A stretch of 64,000 nt of DNA from a virus. The notes under the pieces were generated by a model. It did no database searches. It worked only from the letters and a program-made list of their open reading frames with translations, and was not told the origin of the DNA. The stretch lies in IMG/VR virus record IMGVR_UViG_3300042691_041392; one strand, given 5' to 3'. The translations under genes were made by a program, and so were the position numbers. This document shows, piece after piece, positions 15,195-40,217 of this stretch (within the stretch, counting starts at the first letter, position 1; the number at the start of each line of letters is the position of its first letter).

Positions 15195-15225
15195 AAAAAC
15201 CTCTTATTAAATAAGAGGTTTTTTT
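15195..15225. terminator. Bidirectional intrinsic terminator
   Basis: AAAAACCTCTTAT-taa-ATAAGAGGTTTTT. Confidence 0.8.
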
Positions 15226-15553
15226 ATAATAGTTTGTTTAATTTTAAGTCTCTATAAACACGTTTGGTTATATTACCAAGTGATATATCAGAAAATCCAA
15301 TTGGGTCTACCATATCGTCTAAAATCGTCTTATATTTGTTATACCACTCATAAAATATATCACAACTCATTATAATTATTTCAGCGAAAGATATATTTGT
15401 GATAAAATCATCATATTGACAAACTAAGACATTACAATCATGACCAAAACTACTATTAGTGTGATAAAAAGGATAATTTATTGTAACACACATATTCCAA
15501 TCTAATGTTACAATAAAACCCATTTTATGTATTCTATCTAACTCATCAATCAT
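15224..15553 (-). CDS. Hypothetical protein with C-terminal RDxK tag
   Basis: Ends RDLKLNKLL. Confidence 0.6.
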   Translation of the reverse strand: MIDELDRIHKMGFIVTLDWNMCVTINYPFYHTNSSFGHDCNVLVCQYDDFITNISFAEIIIMSCDIFYEWYNKYKTILDDMVDPIGFSDISLGNITKRVYRDLKLNKLL

Positions 15554-15767
15554 TTAAAATCTTTTTAATTTTAAAATCTCTTTTATCAGATTTTTCAAGA
15601 GGTTCTAAGTAGATTTCACCATCTGAAATCCTAACCTCCCATTTACCTCCAGTTTTATCATCTAATAAAACTAGTTTCTTAACTATTACATTTCCATCTG
15701 GATCAACTAAAATTGATGAATCTCCATTTGGAGTGTTTATTTCAAATCTATTTGGTTTAATTGCCAT
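15546..15767 (-). CDS. Hypothetical protein with C-terminal RDxK tag
   Basis: Ends RDFKIKKILND. Confidence 0.6.
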   Translation of the reverse strand: MAIKPNRFEINTPNGDSSILVDPDGNVIVKKLVLLDDKTGGKWEVRISDGEIYLEPLEKSDKRDFKIKKILND

Positions 15768-16461
15768 TTAAAAGTTTATCTATTTTTTCGTCTCTCATTT
15801 GAGATAATAGAATTAGTGATGATTTTTGAAACTCATCATCTATAACATAAACTACTTCATTATCACTTATTTCAAAATAAAAATCATAACTAATAATTAT
15901 TTTTGGTTGAAAAGTTGCTTCACTACGAACTTCATATTGAAAATTATTTATGTTAAATCGTATATCATTAAATAAATAAATCATTTCATCATCCCACCTA
16001 AGATATGGATCAACATAAACTTCAAAATCTAAATACTTACCAACTGGATAAATATAACCATTTGTATTCAATGTGTTTTTAGATAATTTGAAATTAAAAA
16101 AATGAAAAGATGATGAGTCTTGTAACTCAGCTGACAATCTAGCACAACTAACTAAATTTTTATACTTATATTTTGATAAATATAAGCTAGTTATGTTTAA
16201 TTTTTCATAATAACCAATATTTCTCAAATCGATAAAACCTTTATTATATTTCATCTCTTTGAATATATACTTAATTAAAGTTCTTAAAATCTCATATTTA
16301 ATCTGACTAATAAATTTATCTATATATTCATCAGTCATTGGAACTGAAACTGAAATACTCACACTATTTTTATTAGACGTTATTTTATCATCTAAAATTA
16401 AAAAGTCTTTGTTTTCAAAACTTAAAGATTTGATTATATTTTCTATTAAATCACTATACAT
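15757..16461 (-). CDS. Truncated, divergent paralog of the major capsid protein with C-terminal RDxK tag
   Basis: LSAELQD...LNTNGYIYPVG...VYVDPYLRWDD...SEATFQP aligns with MCP LAAALQD...LNGQGQLYPVG...IYVDPYMKYND...SEATFAP; ends RDEKIDKLLNGN. Confidence 0.75.
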   Translation of the reverse strand: MYSDLIENIIKSLSFENKDFLILDDKITSNKNSVSISVSVPMTDEYIDKFISQIKYEILRTLIKYIFKEMKYNKGFIDLRNIGYYEKLNITSLYLSKYKYKNLVSCARLSAELQDSSSFHFFNFKLSKNTLNTNGYIYPVGKYLDFEVYVDPYLRWDDEMIYLFNDIRFNINNFQYEVRSEATFQPKIIISYDFYFEISDNEVVYVIDDEFQKSSLILLSQMRDEKIDKLLNGN

Positions 16462-16463
16462 AA

Positions 16464-17417
16464 TTAATTTATCTTTTCACCAGTTTCGGGATTATAATTA
16501 AGAATTAAAATCTCAACACCCTTTTCTTGTTCTTTTTTAGTATCAGAATTATTACCACCTTGTGCGGAACTTCTAAATACTTCTTTCTCAAACCACATAT
16601 ATTTATCTCTTGGTAACAATTCTTCTAATAAAGGGAAATAATAATATGATAAAGACCAACGAGACTTTGACTTTTTAATCAACTCTAATAATCTTCTATG
16701 AGAAGCTGGTCCAAATACACCATCACTATCAGCACCATACCAAAACAACCTTTTAGCATCATCATCACCTTTACCTTCATTAAATCTCGCATATGGTGGA
16801 TCTAAATAGATATAAGTATCATCTGAGTCATATTTTGTAATAAGATCTTCAAAATCAATGTTAGTAAACTCTTTAATAGATTGTAGTTTCTCTGTATATT
16901 TATTCTTCTTTAATTTATCAATAAGAACTTCTAACTTTAATTTATCTTTATCTTTTTTATAACCATTGAATCCAGCACCTCGTGGATAAACTGAATTGTG
17001 AGCTGATGTAATTAAGAATGCGTAAATAGCAGCTTTTTCAAAATCACCAATCTCAAAATTCATATTATCTAAGAATTCATTTTTTTGATATTCTTTATAA
17101 ATGCCTTTATAGAAGTCCCATTTCTTTAAAGCTTCTGTTTCGTTTGTTTTTAAGAGAGTATTTTTTAGATTTTCTAAATAAGGTAGAAACTCTTGAGGTT
17201 TTGAACAACAATAATATAAATTAACTTGATGTCTATTTTTATCATTGTAAATGACAGTATCAACTTTTAATGTATCATCATCTAAATAGGTTCCCATAGA
17301 TCCACTAAATGGTTCTAAATAAGTTTTTATACTACCATCTTTAGGTATTTTTTTATTTATAAATTCGTGGAAAACATTTGAACTCTTGCCACCGAAATAT
17401 GATATCATCGCACACAT
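16464..17417 (-). CDS. DNA adenine methyltransferase, Dam/D12 class
   Basis: ISYFGGK, YLEPFSG, IYND and YLDPPY motifs. Confidence 0.85.
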   Translation of the reverse strand: MCAMISYFGGKSSNVFHEFINKKIPKDGSIKTYLEPFSGSMGTYLDDDTLKVDTVIYNDKNRHQVNLYYCCSKPQEFLPYLENLKNTLLKTNETEALKKWDFYKGIYKEYQKNEFLDNMNFEIGDFEKAAIYAFLITSAHNSVYPRGAGFNGYKKDKDKLKLEVLIDKLKKNKYTEKLQSIKEFTNIDFEDLITKYDSDDTYIYLDPPYARFNEGKGDDDAKRLFWYGADSDGVFGPASHRRLLELIKKSKSRWSLSYYYFPLLEELLPRDKYMWFEKEVFRSSAQGGNNSDTKKEQEKGVEILILNYNPETGEKIN

Positions 17418-17445
17418 ATTACTTTTCTATTTTTTTAGTTATGAT

Positions 17446-17471
17446 TTATAATCATTTTTATTAAAAAGTTT
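17446..17471 (-). promoter_or_regulatory. Putative middle promoter AAACT-N16-TATAA
   Basis: Same spacing recurs before several non-structural genes (see findings). Confidence 0.5.
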
Positions 17472-17527
17472 AAGGTAATCACTGGGATGATAAGTTTATT
17501 TATATATAAATAAAAATAATAAAATAT

Positions 17528-18169
17528 ATGATTATATACAAAATATCTAATATAATAAATGATAAGATCTATATAGGTCAGACAATAGAGACATTGGATA
17601 AGAGGTGGAGAAGACACACATGGAAGTCAACTATAAAAAGAAATGTAATGGCTATAACCAATGCGATTATAAAATATGGTGTGGAAAATTTCATGATAGA
17701 GGAAATTGATAGTGCTGAAAATATAGAGGAGTTAAATATGAAAGAGGAATATTACATAAAATATTATGATTGTATATCACCAAAGGGTTATAATATAAAA
17801 AATGGTGGTGATAATAAAAAATTATCAGAGGAGACTAAACTAAAAATTAGCATTTCGAATAAAGGTAAAAAAAGAACAAAGGAAACTATAAAAAAACTAT
17901 CAGATTCACACAAAGGATGGGTTCCATCAGAGGAAACAAAACAAAAATGGAGAGATGCGTTTGGTGGTAAAAAACCATCTGACAACACTATAAATGCAGC
18001 TATAGAAGCAAATCAGAAGGAATACACACTTTTAAATCCGGATGGTGAACTTATAACATTTATAAATATGGCAAAGTTTTGTAAGGAAAACAATTTATCA
18101 AATTCTAAATTGTGCTTAGTTGCTAGTGGTAAGATAAAATCGCATAAAGGTTGGACAAAACCTATTTAA
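17528..18169 (+). mobile_element. Free-standing GIY-YIG homing endonuclease with NUMOD3 repeats
   Basis: IIYKI...IYIGQT, E in NMKEEYYI, GYN, and SEETK repeats; inserted antisense between NADAR and the methylase. Confidence 0.85.
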
Positions 18170-18668
18170 AAAATTGTTCTAAACCAGTTTTCTTTTCAAT
18201 TCCTCTTAGTTCATCACGAACTTTCATAAGTATTTTACCAAGATGATTTTTACCTTTATTTCCACACTTTTCACAATAACATGACCCATAAAAATTGTCG
18301 TGCCAATAATTACCTTCGATTAGCTGAAGATCTTCTGTGTTTAATAGAAGTTCTGATAAATTATCATTTTTGAATTTTTCTCTAACACCCCAATTCATGA
18401 ACTCTAATTTCTTTTCATCCCAATCACTACGAACTTTTAACTTTTGACCAAGTTTTTTAACGTGACCTGGACTTGGTGTTTTCGCAATCATTTCTTTAAA
18501 GTCAGCAGGTGTGTAATAAATACCATTTATCATTTGATCATTTTTACATTTTTGTGCTACATAGAAATGTTCTACACTTGGATATTTAATTCCTTGATGT
18601 TCTATTTCAACTGGATAGAAATTGGATAGAAAATTCCATCTACCATCAAATCTATTTATATAACTCAT
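18162..18668 (-). CDS. NADAR family (YbiA-like) hydrolase
   Basis: FLSNFYP...YPSVEHFY.AQK...KF...LIEGNYWHDNFYG...GKNHLGKILMKVR. Confidence 0.9.
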   Translation of the reverse strand: MSYINRFDGRWNFLSNFYPVEIEHQGIKYPSVEHFYVAQKCKNDQMINGIYYTPADFKEMIAKTPSPGHVKKLGQKLKVRSDWDEKKLEFMNWGVREKFKNDNLSELLLNTEDLQLIEGNYWHDNFYGSCYCEKCGNKGKNHLGKILMKVRDELRGIEKKTGLEQFFK

Positions 18669-18681
18669 AGTATTTTATATG

Positions 18682-18709
18682 AAAAAACCCCACAATGTTG
18701 TGGGGTTTT
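18682..18709. terminator. Intrinsic terminator downstream of the tmRNA
   Basis: AAAACCCCACAA-tg-TTGTGGGGTTTT. Confidence 0.8.
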
Positions 18710-18715
18710 AATTTG

Positions 18716-19080
18716 TGGAGAAGACCCGGTACCGCCCCGGGTGTACTACTCAGATGACAACAATTAATCTTCACAGGTTTAGTAGAGTTTTTCTAAACTT
18801 ACAAAATAGTTAGTTGAACTGACCCATCACTCTAACAATTCTGGTTTCACATTTGGTCTGTGTGATACAGTTGGAGAATTTTTTCGATTAGTTTCTCTTA
18901 AACTAACTCTGGAGTGTTAACTCCAATTGCTTTTAGGGTCGCTACTAAATCTTCACGAGATCCTACTTCATTTGTGTTGCCATTTACGACAGTTATCGAT
19001 TAATTTATAAATCGGACATTCGACAACCCGATACCTGCATAATCACCACCAATCTGCTAGGCGAATCTAATGACTTCCCC
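18716..19080 (-). ncRNA. ssrA: tmRNA (one-piece); tag reading frame 18981-18898 encodes GNTNEVGSREDLVATLKAIGVNTPELV*
   Basis: 365 nt; 5' GGGGAAG pairs with 3' CUUCUCC-A including G3:U; GAUUCG D-loop-like segment; P2 helices CAGAU/AUCUG and GCAGGU/ACCUGU; T-arm ACCCGG-GGCGGUA-CCGGGU; UAAAU-GGC resume context; CCA not encoded. Confidence 0.88.
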
Positions 19081-19102
19081 ATATTGTTTGTAATTATTTC
19101 TA

Positions 19103-19134
19103 CAAATGTATATATAATATTTTAAATATACAAA
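19103..19134 (-). promoter_or_regulatory. Bacteroidota-type housekeeping sigma promoter for the tmRNA
   Basis: TTTG(19134-19131)-N20-TACATTTG(19110-19103). Confidence 0.65.
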
Positions 19135-19157
19135 AAAGTTGAAAATTTTATTAAAAA

Positions 19158-19183
19158 AAATAACTCACCAAAGTGAGTTATTT
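19158..19183. terminator. Intrinsic terminator after the peptidase
   Basis: AAATAACTCAC-caaa-GTGAGTTATTT. Confidence 0.7.
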
Positions 19184-19189
19184 AATATT

Positions 19190-21034
19190 TTAGAATACAT
19201 CAGTATCATCTGGCATATCACCATCATCCATTGAGTAGAAGTTGAATATAAATAGTGGTTCTACTTTTCTTGTTTCCCATATATCACATTCCAAATCAAA
19301 ATCAATTAAGACATCTTTATCAATTTTCTTTATAACTTCATAGATATGAATAACTTCATCAAGTTTATAAAAATAATTAACCATTCCGTATGTTGTTGGT
19401 ATAATTTGAACTTTTAAATTCATACCAGTATTTGTTACTTCACAGTTTTTGATACCAGCTTGAGTAATCATTTTTCTCAAAAGATATTTAAGATTATCAA
19501 TATCATCAGTGTTATTATCGTCATCATCTTCATATTGATCATAATCCTCTTCCTCTTCATCATCCCATCTATCCCACTCTTCATTTAAGAATTGGTCATA
19601 TTTCTTCAATTTATTTGACTCATAAGGATCATTATAAGTTCTATTAGTCTTAGATGAACTATCTTTACCCAATATAATTTGTAAATATGTCTCATCAAAT
19701 AAACAAGAAGTTGGTCTTTTGTGAAGTTTCATAACATTTCTAAGTTCTTTTAAACTTTCTAAAATGGTATCAATATCTTCATTTTCTAAATCAAAGTTTA
19801 CATAAACATTACCGTGATCAGTTGAAATAGTTTTATCTAAATTAACTCCTTTTAAAGCATCGACAAATTCTTTATTTGATGTTTTAACATTAGATATCAT
19901 CTGTTTAATAGCCGCTCTATCTTGAATAGTTCTCACAACTGGTAAGTTAGCCCAATCTACATTAACAGAAGCTTTACATAAATCTATTAAGTAATCCATA
20001 TTTTGAATTTCTTTACCAGTATGCTCATTTAAATAACCAACTGAAACGTTTGTACATTCAGGAATATCATCTATAAATGAAGCTGAATCGGTGAATACAC
20101 CAGTAGGGTCAATTTTCAAATTCAATCCACTTGCGTTATATTGTTCACAAAGTGCGTTACCAAATTCATCAGAACAACATCTACCACCAGCTTGTGCGGT
20201 AATAACAGAAATTGTTTTTCTTCTATCAAAAGAAACACATCTTTTAATATTTTTCAAATAACTAACTTCATCATATTTATCAGCTAAAGCTCTAGAACCA
20301 ATACCACCTCTTTCTTCTCCGATAAAGAAGTAATAAAGACCTGGTACATTTTTAGCCATCATATATAACATAACAGTTGTTCCTGCTTTATCATCAGCAC
20401 CTAATACTGTTGTTCCATCAGTTACGATGTGTTCTTGTTCATCAATTTGAACAGAAAAAAGTCTTGTAACAGCTTGTTTTCTATCGGCTGTATCTAAGTG
20501 ACAAGTAAACATAGTTGTTGGATTGTCACCAATTATTTTATAATAGTTACCAACAATATCTTTACTTAATTCAGGTAGGAATTGAAGAACTTCATCTTCA
20601 TGTCCATGTGGATAAGTTTTAGTAACTAATGAAAGGAATGTAGATCTTGGATCTAATGGATTATATTCAAATGTAGGAACCTTAATTGGAATTTTTTCAT
20701 CTTCAACAGATTCTCCTTTTTTAACTTTATTATACAAAGTAACAAAGTTTTGAATATCTTCTGATGTAAAATAATTATGAAAATAATATCTAATAAAGTT
20801 ACCACATTTCATATCAACTGTTCCTTTATCTTTTGTTGTTACTTTAAAATGAAAATCTTTATCAGAAACATCAACATTTGTTATTTTCAATCCATTGAAA
20901 TATTCTGTATCTTCATCATCTAAACATAATATTTCAAAAGCAATATATTCATTCATATCATTAAGCTTTTCTAATACATCTATTAAAGCTTTTGATAATT
21001 TTATTTTTGGTAAGTTTGTTGGTTCTCCCGCCAT
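19190..21034 (-). CDS. M28/M20-type zinc metallopeptidase with N- and C-terminal extensions
   Basis: CHLDT, LGADDKAG, GEERG, FDR, FTDS and NEHT metal-binding motifs. Confidence 0.8.
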   Translation of the reverse strand: MAGEPTNLPKIKLSKALIDVLEKLNDMNEYIAFEILCLDDEDTEYFNGLKITNVDVSDKDFHFKVTTKDKGTVDMKCGNFIRYYFHNYFTSEDIQNFVTLYNKVKKGESVEDEKIPIKVPTFEYNPLDPRSTFLSLVTKTYPHGHEDEVLQFLPELSKDIVGNYYKIIGDNPTTMFTCHLDTADRKQAVTRLFSVQIDEQEHIVTDGTTVLGADDKAGTTVMLYMMAKNVPGLYYFFIGEERGGIGSRALADKYDEVSYLKNIKRCVSFDRRKTISVITAQAGGRCCSDEFGNALCEQYNASGLNLKIDPTGVFTDSASFIDDIPECTNVSVGYLNEHTGKEIQNMDYLIDLCKASVNVDWANLPVVRTIQDRAAIKQMISNVKTSNKEFVDALKGVNLDKTISTDHGNVYVNFDLENEDIDTILESLKELRNVMKLHKRPTSCLFDETYLQIILGKDSSSKTNRTYNDPYESNKLKKYDQFLNEEWDRWDDEEEEDYDQYEDDDDNNTDDIDNLKYLLRKMITQAGIKNCEVTNTGMNLKVQIIPTTYGMVNYFYKLDEVIHIYEVIKKIDKDVLIDFDLECDIWETRKVEPLFIFNFYSMDDGDMPDDTDVF

Positions 21035-21071
21035 CTTTTAAAATTTCTTTTTTTGTATATATTAAATTCAA

Positions 21072-21686
21072 TTAATGAGTTATTTCAACTCTACCTTTAG
21101 AATATCTAACATACCTACTATTTGTATGATCTACCTGCACTTGACCAGTTACAGATCCTTGTTTTTTACTAACATAATCTTTTGTACAAACAACTATATC
21201 ACAATTTGAAAGGTCATTTAAAGAATATTTCTTTTTTTCATTACTTTCCATCTTTTCTAAATGACTGTTTTTTTTAACTATGTCAGCAGCTTGTAGAATA
21301 ACATTCTCTGGTATAATATCATCTTTTAATGTTTTAATTATAAGATGAGTTCCAATAATTCTATCACCAGTAACTTCTTCACCATTAGTTTTATAATAGT
21401 GATCAGGATTTTTTATACTTGTAGCGTGCATCCAAATATCATTTTTACTAGGCTCTGAACCACCGATTGGGTTAGCAAATTTACCGGAATACATAGTGGT
21501 TAGAAAATCATTACTTTTAGCATTTCTACCCCAATAGACATCATATACATTTTCTGGATTATTCGAATCTGATATTTTTTTATGTTTTATATCATAACCA
21601 TCCAATTTGAATTGTTCTAAATCACTTTTTGGAGTGCTTGTAGATGTCTCATATACTTTAAACGTTTTAAATCTTTTAATTCTCAT
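21072..21686 (-). CDS. Stand-alone NFACT-R (DUF814, RqcH/Rqc2 RNA-binding) domain protein
   Basis: GRNAKSNDFLT...DIWMHA...GTHLII...ILQAADIV..NS...YVSK..G...GQV matches the NFACT-R pattern GRN..QND.LT...D.W.H...GSHV....AA.LA..YS..YV.K. Confidence 0.7.
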   Translation of the reverse strand: MRIKRFKTFKVYETSTSTPKSDLEQFKLDGYDIKHKKISDSNNPENVYDVYWGRNAKSNDFLTTMYSGKFANPIGGSEPSKNDIWMHATSIKNPDHYYKTNGEEVTGDRIIGTHLIIKTLKDDIIPENVILQAADIVKKNSHLEKMESNEKKKYSLNDLSNCDIVVCTKDYVSKKQGSVTGQVQVDHTNSRYVRYSKGRVEITH

Positions 21687-21720
21687 AGTTTATATATTAA
21701 AATTGAAAAATGTATAAACA

Positions 21721-21748
21721 AAAAAAACTCTCCATCAGGAGAGTTTTT
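21721..21748. terminator. Terminator after the major capsid gene
   Basis: AAAAAACTCTCC-atca-GGAGAGTTTTTT. Confidence 0.8.
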
Positions 21749-21765
21749 TATATCTTTATTAACTA

Positions 21766-23517
21766 TTAGTTAAGTAATTGATTTCTATCAGTTACAACGA
21801 TAGTCATAAATTGTTTTTGTGGGAACCAACCAACTTCAGCTACTGCGTATCTAGATCTTAGTAACATTCTTGGAGCGAAAGTCGCTTCAGAAATAACTGA
21901 GATAGATTGAGCCATTAAGTAAGGTACGAAGATGATACCTGGTTGATCAGGATTGTTTTTTCTACCTAAAACGATTCTGTTGTCGTTATATTTCATGTAT
22001 GGATCAACATAGATAGAAATATCACCAATTGAACCAACAGGATATAATTGACCTTGTCCGTTTAATTTAGATTTAACTGGGTTAATAGTGTAACCAGCGA
22101 TATCTTGTAAAGCTGCAGCTAATCCCCCGTTTGTGATTAAGTATTGAGCTGGACCTACACGACCTTCAGTTGCGATGTAGTTAGAAGCGTGAGCAATCTT
22201 AGTGATTAACTTTCTTTGAACAGCGTGTGTAGTTTCACCTGTTACAGCAGCACTAGCATAAGCTGTGTTTAAGTCAAAGATTGTTGAAGCAGAACCAGTA
22301 ATTAAAGTACTTGATAAAGAAGTATTTAATGGAGCTGATGTTCTGTTTAACGCACCCATCTCAAAGATTTTAGCAACGATTTGTTTAGAAATTGTTTGAG
22401 ATAACTCGTTAACAAGGATAGATTCCATTTTTTGAACGATATCCATACCTGTGTTAGCTTTAATATCTTCAATTTCTGTTCTTCTTAAAGCTGAAGATAC
22501 TTCAATAGTACCAACTGCGATAGTTTTAGAAGAAATTTTTGGTCCGATAACACCAGCGTAAGAGTCATCGTCAGCATCTCTACCCATTGGGTAAGAACCA
22601 GCAGCGTTAGAAGTAGCAACACCTGTCCAGTTTGCAGAGAAACCAGGGATATGATCTTCTAATGCAGATACTAATTCAACAGTTTTTGTACTTGCACCTG
22701 ATACAGAGTGAGTACCAACAAGAACGATTTGAGATGACATAGAAGCCGTAGCTGAGAATGTATTTCTTGTAGAGTCAAAAGCCCAAGCAGTTGTAAATTG
22801 GTTTACACCTGTGTGAGATGTGTTAGCTTGTCTGTAAGCTCTGAAGATTGGGTAACCATCGATACGAGAGAAACCTAAGAACTCAGCGTAAGCAGCTTTG
22901 TTTGAAGGCTCAGTTTGAGTAAACTCACCACCTACTGGTGCTTCAGATCCTGCTGTGTTAGATGCAGTACCTAAAGTAACCCATACTCTACCACCTTGAA
23001 GACCACCACTTGTTTGAGTAATGTTATATCCAGATAATTTAGTGTTTAATGTTGTAGTAACATTTCCTAATGTAGTAGAGTCTAAGTTTAATTTGAAAAC
23101 TTGTGGTCTCTCATCAGATGCGCCTAATCTTGTATCATCATATTGGAAATCAATATAAAGTAAATCAATTTTCGGACCTGGAGAAGGTTTAACAGCTACT
23201 AAATCTAAACCGATTGTTTGAGCAGCGATTTTCATAGCTACTGGTAAAAGGTTTTGACCAACGTCTCCTGAACCAGCAACACCACCCCAGTTTGCACCAA
23301 CTGTAACACCTGAAGGTGTATTTGAACCAATAACTGGATTTAAAACAGCACCCATACCTGCTACGTTAGAAGCATTTACATATGCATTTTCATTGATTGA
23401 GTGAAACTCAGCGTATTCCGCCATCCATTCAACTCTATCACCTGTAACTCCCATGTTCTCAAGAACCGGAGCCCATTTCTTAGTTGCTTTCGCTTTGTCT
23501 ATTCTAATGTGTGACAT
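21766..23517 (-). CDS. gp23: Major capsid protein (T4 gp23-like)
   Basis: KKWAPVLE, IGLDLVAVKP, IYVDPY, FVPY and RSRYAV gp23-family motifs; biased codon usage; probable maturation site SINE. Confidence 0.9.
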   Translation of the reverse strand: MSHIRIDKAKATKKWAPVLENMGVTGDRVEWMAEYAEFHSINENAYVNASNVAGMGAVLNPVIGSNTPSGVTVGANWGGVAGSGDVGQNLLPVAMKIAAQTIGLDLVAVKPSPGPKIDLLYIDFQYDDTRLGASDERPQVFKLNLDSTTLGNVTTTLNTKLSGYNITQTSGGLQGGRVWVTLGTASNTAGSEAPVGGEFTQTEPSNKAAYAEFLGFSRIDGYPIFRAYRQANTSHTGVNQFTTAWAFDSTRNTFSATASMSSQIVLVGTHSVSGASTKTVELVSALEDHIPGFSANWTGVATSNAAGSYPMGRDADDDSYAGVIGPKISSKTIAVGTIEVSSALRRTEIEDIKANTGMDIVQKMESILVNELSQTISKQIVAKIFEMGALNRTSAPLNTSLSSTLITGSASTIFDLNTAYASAAVTGETTHAVQRKLITKIAHASNYIATEGRVGPAQYLITNGGLAAALQDIAGYTINPVKSKLNGQGQLYPVGSIGDISIYVDPYMKYNDNRIVLGRKNNPDQPGIIFVPYLMAQSISVISEATFAPRMLLRSRYAVAEVGWFPQKQFMTIVVTDRNQLLN

Positions 23518-23551
23518 AATTAATTTATTTTTTTTTATTTTTTTTATAATC

Positions 23552-23597
23552 TATATATTACCTTAATTTTACTCGTTTTTTTCAAGTGTGGATTTTT
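23552..23597 (-). promoter_or_regulatory. Late promoter TAATATATA with upstream GAAAAAA..GAGT element
   Basis: AAAAATCCAcacttGAAAAAAACGAGT...TAATATATA before the MCP; similar at 25746-25790. Confidence 0.6.
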
Positions 23598-23603
23598 TAT
23601 AGA

Positions 23604-25712
23604 TTAGATGTTTTTGAATCTTTCCATAATAGCATTTACATCATTGTCAGATAATTTATCTTCTTGAATTAAAGCATCATGTGAAACTAATTTTTTAGTT
23701 ACAGATTCATTTGTTTTAAGATTTCTAGTTGCCCAGAAATGCTCAATTTGTGACTCAGTTGTTAACATTTCAGCTGGGTATAATCTAGCTTGTGATAACA
23801 TAGATTTTTTAGCTGATTCATTTAACTGATTCCAGATAGCCTTAGTGTTTTCAGGCATCATTCTGATAACTCTTTCTTCTAGAGTTTCATTTTTAGTTGA
23901 TAATGCTTCAGAAATTAATGAAAGAACTTCTTTTTGTGTGAAGTAACTTCTTTCGTTTATGTGAAGTTTAACAGTTTCTTGTTCTTCATTAGTTAAAGCA
24001 TAGTAACTATCAACTTGTGATTTAGATAAGAATTTTAAGAAATTCAAATCTGATGTCTCGGAAACTTTACGTTTTTTAGCCTCTTCGATTAATTTATTAA
24101 TAGATTCAGATAATTCAGAATCATTGTCACCAGAAACTTCATAGTCCATTGGTCCACATTCTTCATCATCTTCTTCATCTTCTTCGTGTGCATAAGCCTC
24201 TTCAGAACCTACGTGAGAAATACCATTGTATTCTTCTTCATCTTCGTTTTCTTCTTCAGAACCCCAAGCTTCTTCTTCATCCTCATCTTCTAAAGAAGAA
24301 AAACCAGCAGCGTTTAATGTTGGGAAAGCTTCTTCAGCAGATTCGAATAATTTACCACCGTTTAATTTCTCAGCAATCATCCCAGCGTAAGAGATTGATT
24401 TGTCTAAGTTCTCAGCGATATATTCAGAGTAAGCGATATTATCATCTAAGTGTTCAGCGATATATTCTGAATAAGCGATATTACCTTCTACGTGCTCAGC
24501 TAAATACTCAGAGTAAGCAATTGAATTATCAACGTGCTCAGCGATATATTCAGAGTAAGCGATGTTTTTATCTAAGTTTTCAGCGATGTATTCAGAGTAA
24601 GCGATATTCTTATCTAAATTCTCAGCGATATACTCAGAGTAAGCGATGTTTTTATCTAAGTTTTCAGCGATATACTCAGAATAAGAGATATTCTTATCTA
24701 AGTTTTCAGCGATATACTCAGAGTAAGCGATGTTTTTATCTAAGTTTTCAGCAACGTATTCAGAATAAGCGATATTCTTATCTAAATTCTCAGCTAAATA
24801 CTCAGAGTAATTAACAGCTTTTTCTAGATTTTCAGCTAAATAGTCATTGTGTTTAATAAGTTTGTCAGTTGTTTCTTTTAACGACTTGTTCTCATTAACC
24901 ATAATTTGAACTTTTTCAGCTAAATAATCTAAATACTTAACAACTTGAGAATTAGTAGTGTTTAATTCATCATAATACTCAAGTAGTTGTTCTAATTTCT
25001 TAGGGCTTAAGTTACCTTTAGAAATAGCATTCTTAACTTCTTTCTTTGTAGAAGCTAATTCATTAACTAAATACTTAGAGTAATCAGTTAATTGTTGCTT
25101 AGTAACAAACTCATTTTTGTTCATGTTAAATAGATCATTTATTTTTGACTCATCGGACATTTCATATATCCTAAAGTTGGATTGTGGATTATCATAACCT
25201 AGTGATTCATTAAGTGTTTTAACACTCATTTTAGCTGAAGCAAAACCTGGATCAGCAACTATATCATAAGTAAATAATTTCTTTAACGAAACTGATCCGT
25301 CAGACTCAGTAATACCTGCGGCTCTAGAAGAAACAAAAACAGGACATCCGTCATCGACCAATGCCTTAGCTTCTTTACCCCAATAAGTACTTAATAATCT
25401 GATTTCACCAGTGACATTATTAGCCTCTTTAACATAGTTAGCTTTAGTAATTATGTGTGAAGCCCTTGAAAGAGATGTGTCAAATACGTCTGGATGGTCA
25501 AATTCACCATACACAGCACCTAACCCATTCATCCTTTCGTTAAGTTCTTGTAGAGCTGGTAAGAATTTTTCAGCTGTATAAATTCTTTCATTACGGTTTT
25601 TAACACCGAATTCTGTAAATATACCACCTAATACATACTTATCTTTACTCACCGAATTATTCTCAACAATAAGAGAATTAGTTGAATTTTCTACAATTAA
25701 GACTGGTTTCAT
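23604..25712 (-). CDS. gp21: Prohead protease (gp21-like) fused to a coiled-coil scaffold
   Basis: KNRNERIY, GEFDHP, VSSRAAG and YDIVADPGF in the first ~170 aa, then 14-aa repeats and an acidic region. Confidence 0.85.
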   Translation of the reverse strand: MKPVLIVENSTNSLIVENNSVSKDKYVLGGIFTEFGVKNRNERIYTAEKFLPALQELNERMNGLGAVYGEFDHPDVFDTSLSRASHIITKANYVKEANNVTGEIRLLSTYWGKEAKALVDDGCPVFVSSRAAGITESDGSVSLKKLFTYDIVADPGFASAKMSVKTLNESLGYDNPQSNFRIYEMSDESKINDLFNMNKNEFVTKQQLTDYSKYLVNELASTKKEVKNAISKGNLSPKKLEQLLEYYDELNTTNSQVVKYLDYLAEKVQIMVNENKSLKETTDKLIKHNDYLAENLEKAVNYSEYLAENLDKNIAYSEYVAENLDKNIAYSEYIAENLDKNISYSEYIAENLDKNIAYSEYIAENLDKNIAYSEYIAENLDKNIAYSEYIAEHVDNSIAYSEYLAEHVEGNIAYSEYIAEHLDDNIAYSEYIAENLDKSISYAGMIAEKLNGGKLFESAEEAFPTLNAAGFSSLEDEDEEEAWGSEEENEDEEEYNGISHVGSEEAYAHEEDEEDDEECGPMDYEVSGDNDSELSESINKLIEEAKKRKVSETSDLNFLKFLSKSQVDSYYALTNEEQETVKLHINERSYFTQKEVLSLISEALSTKNETLEERVIRMMPENTKAIWNQLNESAKKSMLSQARLYPAEMLTTESQIEHFWATRNLKTNESVTKKLVSHDALIQEDKLSDNDVNAIMERFKNI
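24360..24850 (-). repeat. 42-bp coding tandem repeat (YSEYIAENLDKNIA x10 plus degenerate flanks)
   Basis: Read directly from the translation. Confidence 0.9.
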
Positions 25713-25889
25713 GTAAAATAGTTATTTTTTGTATAAATTATAGTGTATATATTGCCTTATCAAACTCCTCTTTTTTCTATATGGATTTTTTACAGTAACT
25801 AAATTTTATAAATACCAAAAGGCTTTTTAAATCATGATTTTTAAAACATTTTCAAAATGAAAAATAAAATACATGTATATTTATATAAA

Positions 25890-26288
25890 ATGATTCTAAC
25901 TAGAGAAATAGATGTAAAGATTAGTGAGTCCAATTTTCATTACTATGAAGACTTAGGATATGATATAGGATTGGGTGAGGTTATTACCATACCAGTAGAA
26001 TTACTTTCGAAAGGTTCCCATCATAAAATAAAGTGCCAATGTGATAGTTGTGGTATAGAAAAACAGGTTATATATAAAAACTATCTTAAATACGACAATA
26101 AGAATTGGGGAGACTATTTTTGTAGAAAATGTTCAGAAATAAAAAGAAAAGAAACACTAAGAAAAAACTTTGGTGTTGATTATCCTATACAAAATAAAAA
26201 AGTATTATCTAAAATGAAAAATACCTTAGTTGAAAAATACGGTGTAGATAATATATCAAAAAAGAATAAAATAAATAAAGATGGCTAA
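25890..26288 (+). CDS. Zn-finger protein resembling homing-endonuclease DNA-binding modules, no nuclease domain
   Basis: CDSC...CRKC and FGVDYP/YGVDNI repeats; start moved to ATG 25890. Confidence 0.55.
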   Translation: MILTREIDVKISESNFHYYEDLGYDIGLGEVITIPVELLSKGSHHKIKCQCDSCGIEKQVIYKNYLKYDNKNWGDYFCRKCSEIKRKETLRKNFGVDYPIQNKKVLSKMKNTLVEKYGVDNISKKNKINKDG

Positions 26289-28185
26289 ATACAATGAAGG
26301 AGATATTCTTGAATCTCAAATAGAATTCTCCGTTAGCGGAAATGCAACTGTCAAAGTTGATGGAAAAGAATTTTTCGTACATAAAAAGAGAACGTTAAAT
26401 TCACTACACTTAGATAAAGTAAGATTTGTTCTCTTTAAAGGAGAAAAAAAATTAGAAGCAAAAGTAATAGAGGTAGTTGAAAGATTTAAATTAGAATTTG
26501 TAGGAACTACTCAAGTTAAAAAAGATCACACATTTGTTATACCAGATAACTCAAAAATACACGTTGACTTTTATATAAAAGGTAAACACTCAGCAGAAGA
26601 TAATCAAAAAGTACTTGTTAAATTTGATAGTTGGGAAAACGGTCAAAAATCACCAAATGCTAAAATTGTTAAAATTTTAGGAACTGTTGGTGAGAATGAA
26701 ACCGAAATGAACGCTATTATGTATGAATATAACTTACCAGTGGATTTCCCACAAGAAGTTTTAAATGAATCAGAGTTAATATCAGAAGTTATTACTGAGA
26801 AAGAGATATCTAAAAGAAGAGATTTGAGAAATATAACTACAATCGGTATCGATCCGTTTGATTCAAAAGATGCTGATGATACAATCGGATTAGAATTTAA
26901 AGATGGTAAAAGATATGTTTCTATAAATATCGCAGATGTTACACACTATATAAAACCAGGAAGTGCCTTAGATGAAGAAGCTTATAAAAGATCATCTTCT
27001 GTTTATTTAGTTGATAGATGTGTGCCAATGATACCAAAAAGATTGAGTAATGGTATATGTTCTTTAAAATCAGGTAGTGATAAACTATGTTACTCTGTTA
27101 TAGTTGAATTAGATACAAATGGTAGAATTGAAAACACTTGGTTTGGTAGAACTATTGTAAACGTAAATAAAGACTATTCTTATGAAATGGCTCAAGAAGT
27201 TATCGACAGAGGAACAGCATCAGAAGAAAATAAAGATTGTGATGAGGTTATTTTAGAATTACACAGATTAGCTTTAAAAATGAGAAGAAGAAGAATGTTA
27301 GGAGGTTCCATGGAAATTGGTGGTGTTGAAGTTAAATTCAAATTAGCTGATGATAATAAAAAACCAATTGGACTTTATTTAAAAGAACAAAAAGAAGCTA
27401 ATCACTTAATAGAAGAATATATGTTATTAGCGAATAGAGAAGTTGCTAAGTTTATTAAGTCTAGAGGGTTACCTTGTGTTAATAGAATTCACGAAGAACC
27501 GGATGAAACTAAATTAGAACATATTAAAACATTCATATCAACTTTAGGATATGAAGTAAATTACGGTGATACACCTGAGAAGACTAAATTAGTTATAAAT
27601 GAACTAATGAAAAGTTGCAAAGGAACTAGTGAGGAAAACATCATTACAACTTTAATAGTTAGAGCTCAGCAAAAGGCTAAATATACAACTAGAAACATTG
27701 GTCATTATGGTTTGGGATTTGAACACTATTCACACTTCACAAGTCCGATTAGAAGATATAGTGATATGTTGACACATAGATTATTATCAATGGCATTGAA
27801 AAGTGAGGGATATAGTAAAGATGTTAAACCAAACGAATTAGAAAAACAATGTGAGTGGATATCTAAACAAGAAGTAGTATCAGCAAAAGCTCAAAGAGAT
27901 TCTATTAAGTATAAACAAGCTGAATACTTAGGAGACAGAATTGGTCAAGTTTTTGATGGAATTGTTTCAGGTGTATTAGATAGAGGAATCTATGTAGAAT
28001 TGTTTGAAAGTAAATGTGAAGGTTTAATAAAACTAAGTAGTTTAGAAGGAAAATGGATGGCTTATCCAGATAATTACTATGCTGTTAGTGATTTAGGTGA
28101 TAAAGTTAGATTAGGTGATCCAATAAAGGTTGTTGTTAAGTCAGTTGATTTAGAAAAGAAACAAATCGATTTTTTAAAATTTTAA
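26281..28185 (+). CDS. rnr: Ribonuclease R (RNB family)
   Basis: IDPFDSKDADD, IADVTHY, LIEEYMLLAN, HYGLGF..YSHFTSPIRRYSD and a C-terminal S1 domain. Confidence 0.92.
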   Translation: MAKYNEGDILESQIEFSVSGNATVKVDGKEFFVHKKRTLNSLHLDKVRFVLFKGEKKLEAKVIEVVERFKLEFVGTTQVKKDHTFVIPDNSKIHVDFYIKGKHSAEDNQKVLVKFDSWENGQKSPNAKIVKILGTVGENETEMNAIMYEYNLPVDFPQEVLNESELISEVITEKEISKRRDLRNITTIGIDPFDSKDADDTIGLEFKDGKRYVSINIADVTHYIKPGSALDEEAYKRSSSVYLVDRCVPMIPKRLSNGICSLKSGSDKLCYSVIVELDTNGRIENTWFGRTIVNVNKDYSYEMAQEVIDRGTASEENKDCDEVILELHRLALKMRRRRMLGGSMEIGGVEVKFKLADDNKKPIGLYLKEQKEANHLIEEYMLLANREVAKFIKSRGLPCVNRIHEEPDETKLEHIKTFISTLGYEVNYGDTPEKTKLVINELMKSCKGTSEENIITTLIVRAQQKAKYTTRNIGHYGLGFEHYSHFTSPIRRYSDMLTHRLLSMALKSEGYSKDVKPNELEKQCEWISKQEVVSAKAQRDSIKYKQAEYLGDRIGQVFDGIVSGVLDRGIYVELFESKCEGLIKLSSLEGKWMAYPDNYYAVSDLGDKVRLGDPIKVVVKSVDLEKKQIDFLKF

Positions 28186-28187
28186 TT

Positions 28188-28646
28188 ATGGGACAATTAT
28201 ATAGAGTAGATAATGAGGATTCTCATTTAAAAAATAGAATTAAAAAATTCTATTTAGAAGGAATTAAATTATCACAATTTGAAAATAAATTAGAAAAGTG
28301 GCCCAACTGGTTACAATTTAAAAGAGAAATTAAGTTGAACTCTTTACTAGAAGGTAAAAGAGTTCAATTTGATATTGAAGATATTAATGAATGGGGTAAA
28401 ATTGATAGTGTTAAATCAAATGATATGAGTTTATCTGATGTGGTTTTTTCGGTTAAAAGAATCACAATGATTATAAAAGATGATATTGTCGATGAGTTAG
28501 AAATTGAATGGAGACCATTACAAACAGAATTGGGTAGATCAATAATTGGATTATTAGATGCTGGAATTGATGTAGATATATCTATGAGTTTCTTTGAGGA
28601 TCAATTTAGTCATTTTTATATAAAAACAGAAAAGAATGTAGCATAA
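28188..28646 (+). CDS. Catalytically degenerate prohead-protease paralog with an internal RExK tag
   Basis: WGKIDSVKSNDMSLS aligns ungapped with protease YGEFDHPDVFDTSLS; LQTELGRSIIGLLDAG aligns with LSTYWGKEAKALVDDG; both His lost. Confidence 0.6.
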   Translation: MGQLYRVDNEDSHLKNRIKKFYLEGIKLSQFENKLEKWPNWLQFKREIKLNSLLEGKRVQFDIEDINEWGKIDSVKSNDMSLSDVVFSVKRITMIIKDDIVDELEIEWRPLQTELGRSIIGLLDAGIDVDISMSFFEDQFSHFYIKTEKNVA

Positions 28647-28677
28647 AAAAGTCTCAGTTTTCACTGAGACTTTTTTT
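28645..28677. terminator. Bidirectional terminator
   Basis: AAAAAAGTCTCAG-ttttca-CTGAGACTTTTTT. Confidence 0.8.
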
Positions 28678-28683
28678 ATATCA

Positions 28684-30435
28684 TTAAAATTCAAACTCAC
28701 TACCACCTTGAGCACCACCACCTTGAGCTGGAGGAGCTTCGGGAGCCGCTTGTCCACCACCTTGAGCAGGAGCCTCAGGAGCCGCTTGTCCACCGGCTTG
28801 AGCACCACCTTGAGCACCCATTTCACCACCGACTTGAGCACCACCTTGAGCACCCATTTCACCACCGACTTGAGCACCACCTTGAGCACCCGGAGCGGCT
28901 CCGGCGCCAGCAGCATCTTTAGCCCAATATTTCTGGTTTTCAGCTTTTTCTTCAGGTGTTAATTTAAATACGTGATCCATTATCCATTCAATATGGAAAT
29001 AAGGTTTTTCACCATTCATAATACCAGTAAGTGTACCAATTGCTTCAGCTCTTTTAGCTAAATTATTAATCTTTTTCCACTCTTCAAAAATTTGATTTGA
29101 GTTGAAATCAATATCTATCTCATTCATTATAATATCATCTTCTCTGAGTTCTGGAAATTCAACTAACATTTGTAGTTTAAGAGGTTTTACTATAATTTCT
29201 TTAAAATTTGCTCTTAATCTACCAATAAAATTATGAAACTTAACTTCATCATTTGTCATACCAGCTTGATCAGCAACAAAAGTACCACCACCACCTTCAG
29301 CTTCAAATCGATTAATTGGAATTTTAGAAGCTCTTTTAAGTGCCATGTGAAACCACTTCAACATACCATCTTCATTTATATCATGTCCTTGAGGAGCAAC
29401 TAATTCCATATTAGGAGTACCAGCATCACCATCAGGAAACCATACTTGTTTATTATACGGAATATGTTTAGCACCATTTATAGAAATTGTACCCAATGTA
29501 TCATCAAATTCAATTTCTTCTGAATAATCTTGTATCAATTGACCTATTTGTTCTTCCGCCTTTTGTCTAGATAAACCTTTGATCGGAATAGTAAATTTTT
29601 GATAGACAGTAGCATTCATTATATTAAACATAATTCTTGTTTGCTCAAGAATTTTTAACTGGTTATAAGGTTTAATTAAACCTTCAACATATGAAGTCTC
29701 AGAAAAATCATTTTGAGTTGAATATGAAATAAATGCTATTTGAGAATCTAAAAATATTCTTCTCAACTGCGGATCTTCAGGAAACTGAATCCATAAGTGA
29801 CCAACGTTTGGTTCATAAGCTGGTACAATACTTTCTGGTTTTAACCTATTAAATGCGATTATATTCTTCTTTTTATCATCCCAAACTAATTCAACTGCCA
29901 AATAACCATCTATAAGAAAGTCTCTCATCATGTTAAAAGCAGTAACACTATCTGAAAATCCAAACTTATTATATATTTTTTCAAAAAATTCTTGATATTT
30001 ATCTTTTATATCTTGTGAATAGTCAGAAGATAATGGTGATGGTGAACAAAAGTCTTTAGTATCATTATAAACAATGGACTCATCCGCGATAGCACTAATA
30101 AAATCTCTAATTTCATCTTTAATTGAATATTCTCTTAGTATTCTTCTTTTATCAGGATAAGACTTATCCAAATAAGGTATAGATTTTCTATTTAAAACCG
30201 AAGCAACCGCTCTTTGAGAAAAGAAGTCATACATTGAACTACCTCTCGCTGCATAAGGATCTTCGTTAATACCAACACCAACTTGATTTCTGATGATCAT
30301 ATCATCGTAGTTCATACCATAGTTAGATAAGTTTCTTAATATTCTACTAAAAAGACCTTTATTTTCTACAGCGGAATTCACAAAACCCATTCCACCTTGA
30401 GAGTTATTATTATTTGTATAATTATATGAAGCCAT
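28684..30435 (-). CDS. gp20: Portal protein (T4 gp20-like) with Gly/Ala/Gln-rich tail
   Basis: IDGYL, SYVEGLIKPYNQLKILE, KAEEQI, LKRASKIP.NR and DEVKFHNFIGRLR motifs. Confidence 0.88.
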   Translation of the reverse strand: MASYNYTNNNNSQGGMGFVNSAVENKGLFSRILRNLSNYGMNYDDMIIRNQVGVGINEDPYAARGSSMYDFFSQRAVASVLNRKSIPYLDKSYPDKRRILREYSIKDEIRDFISAIADESIVYNDTKDFCSPSPLSSDYSQDIKDKYQEFFEKIYNKFGFSDSVTAFNMMRDFLIDGYLAVELVWDDKKKNIIAFNRLKPESIVPAYEPNVGHLWIQFPEDPQLRRIFLDSQIAFISYSTQNDFSETSYVEGLIKPYNQLKILEQTRIMFNIMNATVYQKFTIPIKGLSRQKAEEQIGQLIQDYSEEIEFDDTLGTISINGAKHIPYNKQVWFPDGDAGTPNMELVAPQGHDINEDGMLKWFHMALKRASKIPINRFEAEGGGGTFVADQAGMTNDEVKFHNFIGRLRANFKEIIVKPLKLQMLVEFPELREDDIIMNEIDIDFNSNQIFEEWKKINNLAKRAEAIGTLTGIMNGEKPYFHIEWIMDHVFKLTPEEKAENQKYWAKDAAGAGAAPGAQGGAQVGGEMGAQGGAQVGGEMGAQGGAQAGGQAAPEAPAQGGGQAAPEAPPAQGGGAQGGSEFEF

Positions 30436-30487
30436 TAAAAATTATAAATTTTAATGGTATATATAAAAATATGAACTCCCTAAAATG

Positions 30488-30514
30488 AAAAAAGAGACCC
30501 AAAGGTCTCTTTTT
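30488..30514. terminator. Intrinsic terminator
   Basis: AAAAAGAGACC-caaa-GGTCTCTTTT. Confidence 0.75.
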
Positions 30515-30739
30515 CTATATTCCTAATTCATTCAGTTTATTATCTCTCAACTTTTCTTTTAGTCTAAGTTCGTAGTCTTCTAACTTTACACTAAAACTAT
30601 TAGACCAAATAAGTTCTCTATAAGGGGCCATTATCCACTCATTGTGTAAATAAACATTTTCAAAAATGATATTTTTTCTTTTTACAGTAGGATCTTTCTC
30701 AATAATAAAATCCTTAATTAATTCATAATCATACTTCAT
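30515..30739 (-). CDS. Hypothetical protein with C-terminal RDxK tag
   Basis: Ends LRDNKLNELGI. Confidence 0.6.
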   Translation of the reverse strand: MKYDYELIKDFIIEKDPTVKRKNIIFENVYLHNEWIMAPYRELIWSNSFSVKLEDYELRLKEKLRDNKLNELGI

Positions 30740-30743
30740 ACTC

Positions 30744-31190
30744 TTAGATATAAAAAGTTCTATTTACAACATTCAAACTATTCACTGATATCTCACTTTC
30801 TTTCAAGACGTTTCTAATGTCTTTATTATAATTAGTTAAGTGATAAAATAACTTAGTAAAGTTTTTAACAGATGATCTGTTTTTAAAAAGGTTACCATCA
30901 CACCAAACAATTTCACCATTTTGTTTTAAGGTACAATTAATTCTGTGAGTATTTTGACCTGAAGTGAAAATGAACATAACCGTAATTGCTTCTTTTTCTC
31001 TTAAAACCCTAACAGAATGAAAAATAGCATTATCAAAAGCTTTTACTTTACCAACTAAAATATCAAACTTTAGATCTTCAATTTTCTTTTGCTCAATTAA
31101 ATTAGCATGTTCAATAAGTCTTTTAGCTAAATCATTTTGACCAAATGCTGATACTTTTTCAGATGCTGATACGTAAGTAGAATATTTCAT
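30744..31190 (-). CDS. Hypothetical protein, probably early
   Basis: 148-aa ORF; TATCTTTG host-type -7 box at 31222-31215. Confidence 0.6.
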   Translation of the reverse strand: MKYSTYVSASEKVSAFGQNDLAKRLIEHANLIEQKKIEDLKFDILVGKVKAFDNAIFHSVRVLREKEAITVMFIFTSGQNTHRINCTLKQNGEIVWCDGNLFKNRSSVKNFTKLFYHLTNYNKDIRNVLKESEISVNSLNVVNRTFYI

Positions 31191-33375: not shown

Positions 33376-33402
33376 AAAAACCCAGTTTAAAACTGGGTTT
33401 TT
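33376..33402. terminator. Bidirectional terminator
   Basis: AAAAACCCAGTTT-a-AAACTGGGTTTTT. Confidence 0.75.
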
Positions 33403-33557
33403 CCCTTCCATATACTTTTGATTTTTCTCTTTATTCTACCTATTCTACCTTCAAGTTCAAATTTAGCCCCGCTAAAACCCGGAGAACTGACTATATCAAA
33501 TGGAAATAAAACTTGAACAGTCACTTTATCCCAATCTTTTATGTCTTTATTTTTCAT
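33387..33557 (-). CDS. Small hypothetical protein (56 aa, not in ORF track)
   Basis: MKNKDIKDWDKVTVQVLFPFDIVSSPGFSGAKFELEGRIGRIKRKIKSIWKGKTQF, starting 3 nt after the sigma gene stop. Confidence 0.5.
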   Translation of the reverse strand: MKNKDIKDWDKVTVQVLFPFDIVSSPGFSGAKFELEGRIGRIKRKIKSIWKGKTQF

Positions 33558-40187: not shown

Positions 40188-40217
40188 AAAAAAGAGACTT
40201 AAAAGTCTCTTTTTTTT
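40188..40217. terminator. Bidirectional terminator
   Basis: AAAAAGAGACTT-aa-AAGTCTCTTTTT. Confidence 0.75.

Follow-up and report, generated by a model that had tools for sequence, protein, structure and literature searches.

Short terminal sorting peptides are familiar, and one label on about one-seventh of a proteome is unusual. Here we describe such a label, a nine-residue motif at the C-terminus of otherwise unrelated proteins, in a stretch of 64,000 nucleotides from the IMG/VR virus record IMGVR_UViG_3300042691_041392 (the whole stretch is hereafter called the window) and in related megaphages. Several described systems are close to it. Clp recognition peptides include the ssrA and MuA-type C-terminal degrons and the "XB" tethering tail of SspB. 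Scaffold proteins bind the coat through C-terminal helices, as in P22 gp8, 80alpha gp46, SaPI1 CpmB and the herpesvirus scaffold. Poxvirus ankyrin/PRANC proteins, like other substrate adaptors of viruses, end in a constant, F-box-like module that docks to a ligase; PRANC has ~40 residues and binds host Skp1. In phage T4, the capsid targeting sequence is N-terminal, sits on proteins loaded during head assembly and is removed by the prohead protease; Mullaney and Black are said to have described it in 1996 on the internal proteins IPI-III and Alt. Finally, encapsulin cargo-loading peptides, attributed to Sutter et al. in 2008, are reportedly C-terminal peptides of ~10 residues that are carried by unrelated cargo and bind inside an HK97-fold shell.

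A sequence-only reading of the window had reported five bearers of the motif R[DE]xK[LI]xx[LI][LG], and six-frame translation confirmed them: there are exactly five matches in the 64 kb, all in long open reading frames (ORFs). Four copies end 0-3 residues before a stop codon, all on the minus strand (RDLKLNKLL, 15227-15253; RDFKIKKIL, 15555-15581; RDEKIDKLL, 15769-15795; RDNKLNELG, 30521-30547), and the fifth, REIKLNSLL, is internal (28323-28349, plus strand). A sixth, looser case proposed at 33387 (R.KRKIKSIW) did not hold: this 56-aa ORF (33387..33557, minus strand), a fragment of the prohead protease (residues 141-165; BLAST E 2e-6), ends in RIKRKIKSIW, which does not match the motif and is not the tag, and it has no homologue in 80 related loci. 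After shuffling of the window proteins, 0.055 strict matches were expected, and none occurred near a C-terminus in 200 shuffles; the four C-terminal copies compare with 0-0.02 expected. Since the strict expression was written post hoc, fitted to the five window cases, the decisive test is an independent sequence, the complete genome LR756502.1.

All genome-wide figures come from relatives, not from the window's own genome. Besides the complete LR756502.1, the sample comprised four further complete genomes and, from IMG/VR, 160 related loci. The major capsid protein (MCP) of the window is 73% identical to those of two complete uncultured phages, LR756502.1 (642 kb) and LR745206.1 (635 kb), ~50% to those of LR756504.1 and LR756501.1, 36% to that of LR756500.1, and 28-29% to those of the Lak phages and Tenacibaculum phage PTm1.

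In LR756502.1, a looser regular expression matched 105 ORFs, compared with 3.6 expected from shuffles, and 86 matches fell within seven residues of the end, compared with 0.17 expected. Allowing for natural variation (position 2 also N; position 4 also I, Q or N), a total of 137/949 ORFs (14%) end in the tag. When five-residue patterns overrepresented in the final 14 residues were sought blindly, RD.K[LI]..[IL][LG] came out as the top pattern of this genome. The nine-residue core is followed by exactly one residue in 41 of the 86 cases, and by 0-10 residues overall, with ...IL[K/D]-stop and ...LGI-stop as frequent endings. Once the tag was removed, the 137 proteins still formed 129-132 clusters (BLAST and phmmer), which rules out a single expanded paralogous family as its source. 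Only five of the 137 have a Pfam match, including a riboflavin kinase, and the window bearers match nothing in Pfam or PHROGs. What had been taken for a system of five proteins is therefore a real tag, carried instead proteome-wide by ~14% of the ORFs of a complete relative. The tag is strongly supported and apparently undescribed: full-text searches of the literature gave no published description of it or of a similar one.

The tag is strictly clade-specific, with other tags in sister clades and none in more distant relatives. Its back-translated DNA pattern occurs 38 times in LR756502.1 and 37 times in LR745206.1, 1-3 times in three other megaphages and 0-2 times in controls. LR756504.1 carries the variant R-K-x-[K/I]-I-x-E-L-L-stop. 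In LR756501.1 an unrelated label, [L/E]-D-P-Y-G-E-E-x-W (DPYGEExW), is present on 91 of 996 ORFs; about half of its copies lie within six residues of the C-terminus, and many others just after an N-terminal leader. A blind terminal-motif search of the genomes found no tag in LR756500.1, Lak-B1 or PTm1, although LR756500.1 and Lak-B1 are equally AT-rich.

Selection acts on the protein sequence of the tag, not on its DNA. Arg codons inside the tag (AGA 73%, AGG 16%, CGN 10%) match the genome-wide usage, Leu and Ile use all their codons, the x positions are free, and TAA, TGA and TAG all occur after the tag. On this codon and stop-codon usage, a DNA- or RNA-level signal or a recoding signal is rejected. 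The idea that genes carry a nucleic-acid signal at their 3' ends (a terminator, a translational coupling element, a recombination site or a recoding element) that is translated by chance is already close to refuted. It could draw on the median gap of 0 nt upstream of tagged genes and on the fact that gene ends often double as the initiation region of the next gene, but the synonymous codons vary as they do genome-wide, all three stops are used, the tag is always in the coding frame, and it closes 15224-15553 too, which is the last gene of its operon.

Orthologues retain the tag while the remainder of the protein diverges, and the tag columns are the invariant ones in families that are just 23-35% identical. 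The last gene of the operon mentioned above (15224..15553, minus strand) encodes a 109-aa protein of unassigned family that ends in ...RVYRDLKLNKLL-stop and has no match in Pfam or PHROG; among the related loci, the variant R-[DN]-x-N-[LI]-D-x-L-L is preserved in 26 orthologues, where it is terminal or nearly so. The neighbouring 73-aa beta-rich protein (15546..15767, minus strand; ending in ...KRDFKIKKILND-stop) has 28 homologues, of which 27 match the C-terminal tag expression, and R63 is invariant in their alignment. The 74-aa accessory protein encoded at 30515..30739 (minus strand), which ends in the L-G-I variant ...KLRDNKLNELGI-stop, has a single homologue among 80 related loci, and this too ends in NDKLNELGI. 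This conservation supports the earlier suggestion that the bearers share one common partner.

When one position of the motif was relaxed at a time, position 1 was Arg in 86/87 cases and never Lys, position 2 was D, N or E in 110/125 (D62/N24/E24), position 4 was mainly basic (K76/R10/I8), and positions 5, 8 and 9 were aliphatic or Gly. The resulting consensus, h-R-[D/N/E]-x-[K/R]-[L/I]-x-x-[I/L/V]-[L/G/I]-x-stop, describes a ten-residue helix in which, by our own geometry, positions 1, 2, 4, 5, 8 and 9 lie within ~160 degrees of the helical wheel, with 3, 6 and 7 on the opposite side.

On these bases, we lean cautiously towards a portable C-terminal address tag with one conserved reader. The tag would form the last two-three turns of an amphipathic helix, with the conserved residues on one face; this megaphage clade would have appended it to non-late, mostly small, fast-evolving accessory proteins, and one conserved reader would bind the helix face, so that the bearers would all share one fate. 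Should such a reader exist, the tag would single out a functional class within the hundreds of orphan proteins of megaphages that homology search cannot reach. It would also provide a means of pulling down both the reader and the bearers' targets, as well as a portable degradation or localisation tag that should work in Bacteroidota. The differing tags of the sister clades suggest co-evolving tag-reader pairs, a tractable system for the study of code change.

The helical geometry could also be explained with no reader at all. The tag would then simply stabilise small proteins, as an amphipathic C-terminal helix closed by a Schellman-type L-x-x-L-G-I cap; it would be easily made of AT-rich codons and spread by 3'-end recombination or convergence. 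Indeed, all tag residues have AT-rich codons, the L-G-I ending fits, in our own reading, the geometry of a Schellman cap, and the models show the tag as a confidently predicted helix that runs on from the upstream one. We nevertheless judge this improbable: Arg-1 is invariant, with Lys never found, across ~130 unrelated bodies, the motif keeps strictly to its clade and changes in a coordinated way in the sister clade LR756504.1, no tag is present in LR756500.1 and Lak-B1 although both are equally AT-rich, the tag excludes late genes and the N-terminal leader described below, and the HK97 fold of one bearer exists without it. A localisation helix, directed to a non-protein or generic target such as the membrane (MinD/FtsA-type) or the nucleoid, has very little probability in our view. 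A short C-terminal amphipathic helix with basic residues would suit such a function, and the LR756504.1 variant R-K-x-I-I-x-E-L-L shows what we take to be the h-h-x-x-h-h pattern of MinD tails. However, the tag has an acidic or amide residue at position 2, a net charge near zero and three hydrophobic positions only, and an Arg that is never Lys fits a specific pocket better than a lipid surface. A MinD/FtsA-type tail would tolerate Lys/Arg exchange and have no conserved acidic residue; neither holds here.

The bearers also form a class with respect to the putative timing of their genes. The window, which is AT-rich (~29% GC), encodes a T4-like head module, including a gp23-type MCP (21766-23517; Pfam Gp23), a gp20-type portal (28684-30435), a prohead protease of gp21 type joined in one protein to a long scaffold (23604-25712, minus strand) and a T4-type large terminase (42723-44855), along with a gp44-like clamp loader. 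In the window, the MCP gene and many other genes of the structural region have the element [AT]ATATATA at 13-43 nt upstream, and close variants of it precede the protease, portal and terminase genes. In LR756502.1 this late motif precedes 239/949 genes but just two of the 137 tagged ones (34.5 expected, P 3e-16). Walking up to three genes upstream, the motif was reached by 13% of tagged and 49% of untagged genes. Thus, the claim of the sequence-only reading that the motif is shared by otherwise unrelated, non-late proteins extends to ~130 clusters. Tagged genes lie in tight arrays and are densest at both ends of the LR756502.1 record, where ~40% of the small genes are tagged. A k-mer search upstream of the tagged arrays found no strongly enriched promoter element; TAnnTTTG was present and not enriched, and in the window an element of this type lies upstream of 30744-31190, the gene preceding that of the 74-aa protein.

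The same phages carry a second label, the N-terminal leader MK[H/Y][L/I]Kx[F/Y]xxFE, on 63/949 ORFs of LR756502.1 and on five of the 75 window ORFs (13970-14377, 14393-14860, 21072-21686, 38066-38722 and 40216-40830). Forty of the 63 leader ORFs stand behind the late motif (odds ratio 6, P 3e-11), and no ORF carries both the leader and the C-terminal tag, against 9.1 expected. We know of no virus that puts one label on a seventh of its proteome and a second, exclusive label on its late proteins. The presence of two mutually exclusive labels on two temporal classes favours sorting, and disfavours the C-terminal tag as a head-loading signal; the MKHLKxFE leader is a candidate head-targeting leader. 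As a side observation, the leader-bearing late gene at 21072-21686 (minus strand) has a sub-threshold match to the NFACT-R RNA-binding domain (E 8e-4).

Were the tag a head-loading signal, its bearers would be cargo that attaches to the core of the scaffold or to the inside of the capsid shell, in the manner of the T4 capsid targeting sequence, encapsulin cargo-loading peptides and C-terminal scaffold helices. This could account for a C-terminal helical peptide on unrelated proteins, for the three conserved tagged genes that many relatives have at ~5-7 kb from their MCP gene, and for the two bearers with head-protein folds described below. We consider it quite unlikely, as tagged genes are depleted behind the late motif (2/137) and it is the MKHLKxFE leader, never found together with the tag, that is enriched on late genes. 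Moreover, LR756504.1, with its altered tag, has an almost unaltered scaffold repeat, the C-terminus of the scaffold itself (...DVNAIMERFKNI) is unlike the tag, and a logo of the 12 residues preceding the tag shows no conserved cleavage motif of the L-x-E type. The scaffold repeat consists of ~11 tandem 14-residue units (AYSEYIAENLDKNI; ~24380-24860, minus strand), followed by a very acidic stretch, and hardly differs between LR756502.1 and LR756504.1. These units probably also create, as an artefact, the 221-aa ORF at 24149-24814 on the other strand.

In its logic the tag resembles encapsulin cargo peptides, the T4 sequence, Clp degrons and tethers, and the C-terminal helices of scaffolds, yet it departs from them in position, timing, sequence or partner. 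Like the T4 capsid targeting sequence, the tag is a portable terminal peptide of ~10 residues with one destination, in a T4-like background (homologues of gp23, gp20 and gp21 are present here). Unlike it, the tag stands at the C-terminus with no cleavage motif beside it and is depleted among late genes, and the leader of the same phages is a better analogue. With the coat-binding helices of scaffolds the tag shares an amphipathic C-terminal helix with essential basic residues, common to different proteins; those helices, however, occur on few late morphogenetic proteins, whereas the tag occurs on more than 100 non-late ones, and the scaffold of this phage ends in another conserved helix.

Two motif bearers of the window have folds related to head proteins, and the sequence-only reading had taken them for degenerate copies of the phage's own MCP and prohead protease. 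The first is a 234-aa protein (15757..16461, minus strand), encoded next to the two conserved tagged genes described above. Its derivation from the MCP is confirmed by a BLAST match to MCP residues 460-553 (E 4e-12). However, its AlphaFold2 (AF2) model (pLDDT 85, pTM 0.79) matched phage capsids, encapsulins and T4 gp23 with Foldseek probability 1.0 over 200-280 columns, and whole capsid or encapsulin chains of 250-280 residues with E down to 2e-8. Judging from this model, the protein is a complete minimal HK97 fold with E-loop, spine helix and P and A domains, conserved in the clade, and neither a truncated nor a dead copy. It has an extra C-terminal helix (residues 213-231), the second half of which is the tag, and in its family (23-35% identical) the tag residues R223, I227 and L231 make up three of the five invariant columns. 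Most of its small homologues end in the tag and the remainder in near-variants. The HK97 paralogue of LR756500.1 is untagged; therefore, the fold does not require the tag. Since, in addition, LR756504.1 has no paralogue, the tag is an addition, made in this clade, to an older HK97-fold protein.

These observations also bear on the likeness to encapsulins. As with the encapsulin peptides, a short C-terminal peptide is common to unrelated proteins (137 ORFs in 129-132 clusters), and one operon combines tagged genes with the gene of a small HK97-fold protein. However, this protein is itself tagged; it is present and untagged in the tag-free LR756500.1 and missing from the tag-bearing LR756504.1, so that no dedicated HK97 shell co-occurs with tagged cargo. 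The tag also differs from the Gly/Ser/Leu-rich encapsulin motif, and its bearers are ~100-fold more numerous. The small HK97 paralogue was likewise rejected as the reader, as its phyletic pattern does not track the tags.

The second protein, of 152 aa (28188..28646, plus strand), carries the internal copy of the motif. It has no BLAST similarity to the prohead protease, but its AF2 model (pLDDT 81) matched the fold of T4 gp21 (5jbl) with VIA-align Z 8.7 and rmsd 3.6 over 113/152 residues, while the next unrelated row had Z 4.7 and herpesvirus proteases Z 3.3-4.6; Foldseek gave the gp21-type fold a probability of only 0.87, with TM 0.39. Among the 49 sequences of its family only M1, R46 and G116 are invariant, with L50 and L54 conserved in at least 90%. 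Because no Ser or His is invariant, the protein looks like an inactive protease-fold paralogue. The motif is the most conserved block of the family and lies within the modelled helix 41-53; although it had been counted as a copy of the tag, it may be structural here.

The gene of the 152-aa protein directly follows that of a phage RNase II/R (26281-28185, plus strand; RNB, CSD2 and S1 domains, E 2e-98), which sits between the opposite-strand protease and portal genes, an arrangement of RNase and paralogue that is kept in more than 60 relatives. The C-terminus of the portal (28684-28950, minus strand) consists of Gly/Ala/Gln-rich repeats (GAQGGAQVGGEM...), and the ORFs 28554-28916 and 28708-28962 on the strand opposite to the portal look like repeat artefacts.

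The original proposal was that the bearers are baits or decoys (e.g., mimics of capsid and protease) for host defence sensors, with the helix recruiting a protease or unfoldase. In its favour, the paralogues of the capsid protein and of the protease exist, are conserved and belong to non-late genes; ClpC and ClpP are encoded by relatives, which gives the idea of an unfoldase partner a concrete form; and many bearers turn over fast, which would fit an arms race. The logic is that of the poxvirus PRANC proteins, in which a large virus likewise joins many variable bodies to one constant docking module at the C-terminus; here the element has 10 residues. We regard the decoy explanation as having a small probability: ~130 different bodies, among them a riboflavin kinase, are unlikely to be all baits, and the protease-like copy has the motif inside its fold and not on an exposed tail. 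As a general description of the bearers, "bait" does not fit, almost all of them being without a recognisable domain.

Returning to the address tag, the leading candidate for its reader is the phage ClpC unfoldase, working with the phage ClpP. The tag would be a tether or a degron; early proteins would get a short, timed life, or the bearers would deliver bound partners to the protease. We consider ClpC a possible reader, although a doubtful one. A ClpC-type ATPase is present in 4/4 tag-bearing genomes and in 0/3 tag-free ones, a pattern expected by chance once in 35 according to our own arithmetic, the genomes being not independent. LR756502.1 and LR745206.1 encode ClpC and 2-3 ClpP genes. 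The ClpC of the relatives has 707 aa, starts at the first AAA+ domain and lacks the N-domain; it scores 799 bits against residues 155-802 of Bacillus subtilis ClpC and conserves the VGF loop. In ClpC the N-domain binds adaptors and the VGF loop docks ClpP. In this clade, the gene usually lies in an operon behind those of a ~195-aa protein and a ~125-aa beta-rich protein. In LR756502.1 this conserved operon (439547-442667) encodes a ~195-aa protein ending in ...FLRDFLKNFRLA, the ~125-aa protein with a tag variant, and the N-domain-less ClpC. At 15 of 16 loci with a gene of 100-145 aa directly upstream of ClpC, the encoded protein ends in a tag variant, typically E-R-R-D-E-I-I-D-E-L-L-N. By eye only, the ~195-aa protein looks like a peptidyl-tRNA hydrolase 2; it has no Pfam match.

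Several points weigh against this interpretation. The ClpC correlation concerns seven genomes, and the four positives are mutual closest relatives, so that shared ancestry could explain it. The tagged neighbour of ClpC is weak evidence, since 14% of genes are tagged. In LR756501.1, ClpC occurs in the absence of ClpP and alongside a tag of different chemistry, and the tag of LR756504.1 is similar but its ClpC lacks the acidic N-terminal extension of the LR756502.1 ClpC. The tag lies within a confident AF2 helix (pLDDT 84-88), which is compatible with a purely structural role, and the late or early timing of the genes was inferred from a promoter-like motif. The tag is also unlike known Clp degrons or tethers. 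It is C-terminal, short, portable, hydrophobic and basic, as Clp recognition peptides are, and the relatives have genes for a cognate unfoldase and protease; however, it does not resemble LAA, RRKKAI or LRVVK, it may be followed by 0-10 residues, and the candidate ClpC lacks the N-domain that normally binds adaptors.

The most elaborate version of the address tag would be a private proteolysis circuit. The N-domain-less ClpC with ClpP would read the helix directly, and ~14% of the proteome, i.e., the whole early accessory set, would be cleared on schedule or would serve as interchangeable adaptors dragging host proteins to the protease; the capsid- and protease-fold paralogues would be decoys for host sensors, and the sister clades would have co-evolved their own tag-reader pairs. 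Taken as a whole, we find this circuit rather unlikely.

Other candidates were rejected. The 14-residue repeat of the scaffold, as a docking platform, does not covary with the tag variant of LR756504.1. The tag is not a sliding-clamp peptide of the T4/RB69 type, which the replicative polymerase would share: the C-terminal piece of the LR756502.1 PolB ends in ...VVMDIFGGSGF, and its ...MDIFGGSGF tail is presumably a T4-like clamp-binding tail. This family B DNA polymerase is split or interrupted (LR756502.1 120483-121907), with two stops inside the Pfam match. A phage tmRNA might have encoded a matching tag, but ARAGORN found none in LR756502.1 or in the window, and an Rfam search of 30 kb around ClpC returned only a GOLLD RNA and tRNAs. 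The GOLLD RNA (LR756502.1 434685-435091) is full length, scores 275 bits and lies ~5 kb upstream of the ClpC operon, with a tRNA-like gene directly after it; LR756502.1 has 46 tRNA genes in three clusters.

In the window, the operon that holds the three tagged genes is headed by the gene of an untagged D12-class (Dam-type) adenine methyltransferase (16464..17417, minus strand; Pfam PF02086, E 3e-14), with no late-type motif within 60 nt upstream. At 17528-18169 (plus strand) and 18162-18668 (minus strand), a GIY-YIG/NUMOD3 homing endonuclease, which adjoins this operon, and a NADAR-domain protein lie side by side; the endonuclease is probably mobile, because it has just three homologues in the related loci. 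Furthermore, the window encodes a 1183-aa protein with collagen triple-helix repeats (2589-6140, plus strand), followed by several ORFs rich in Gly-Thr-Ser repeats (including 6521-9252, plus strand) that are probably fibre proteins.

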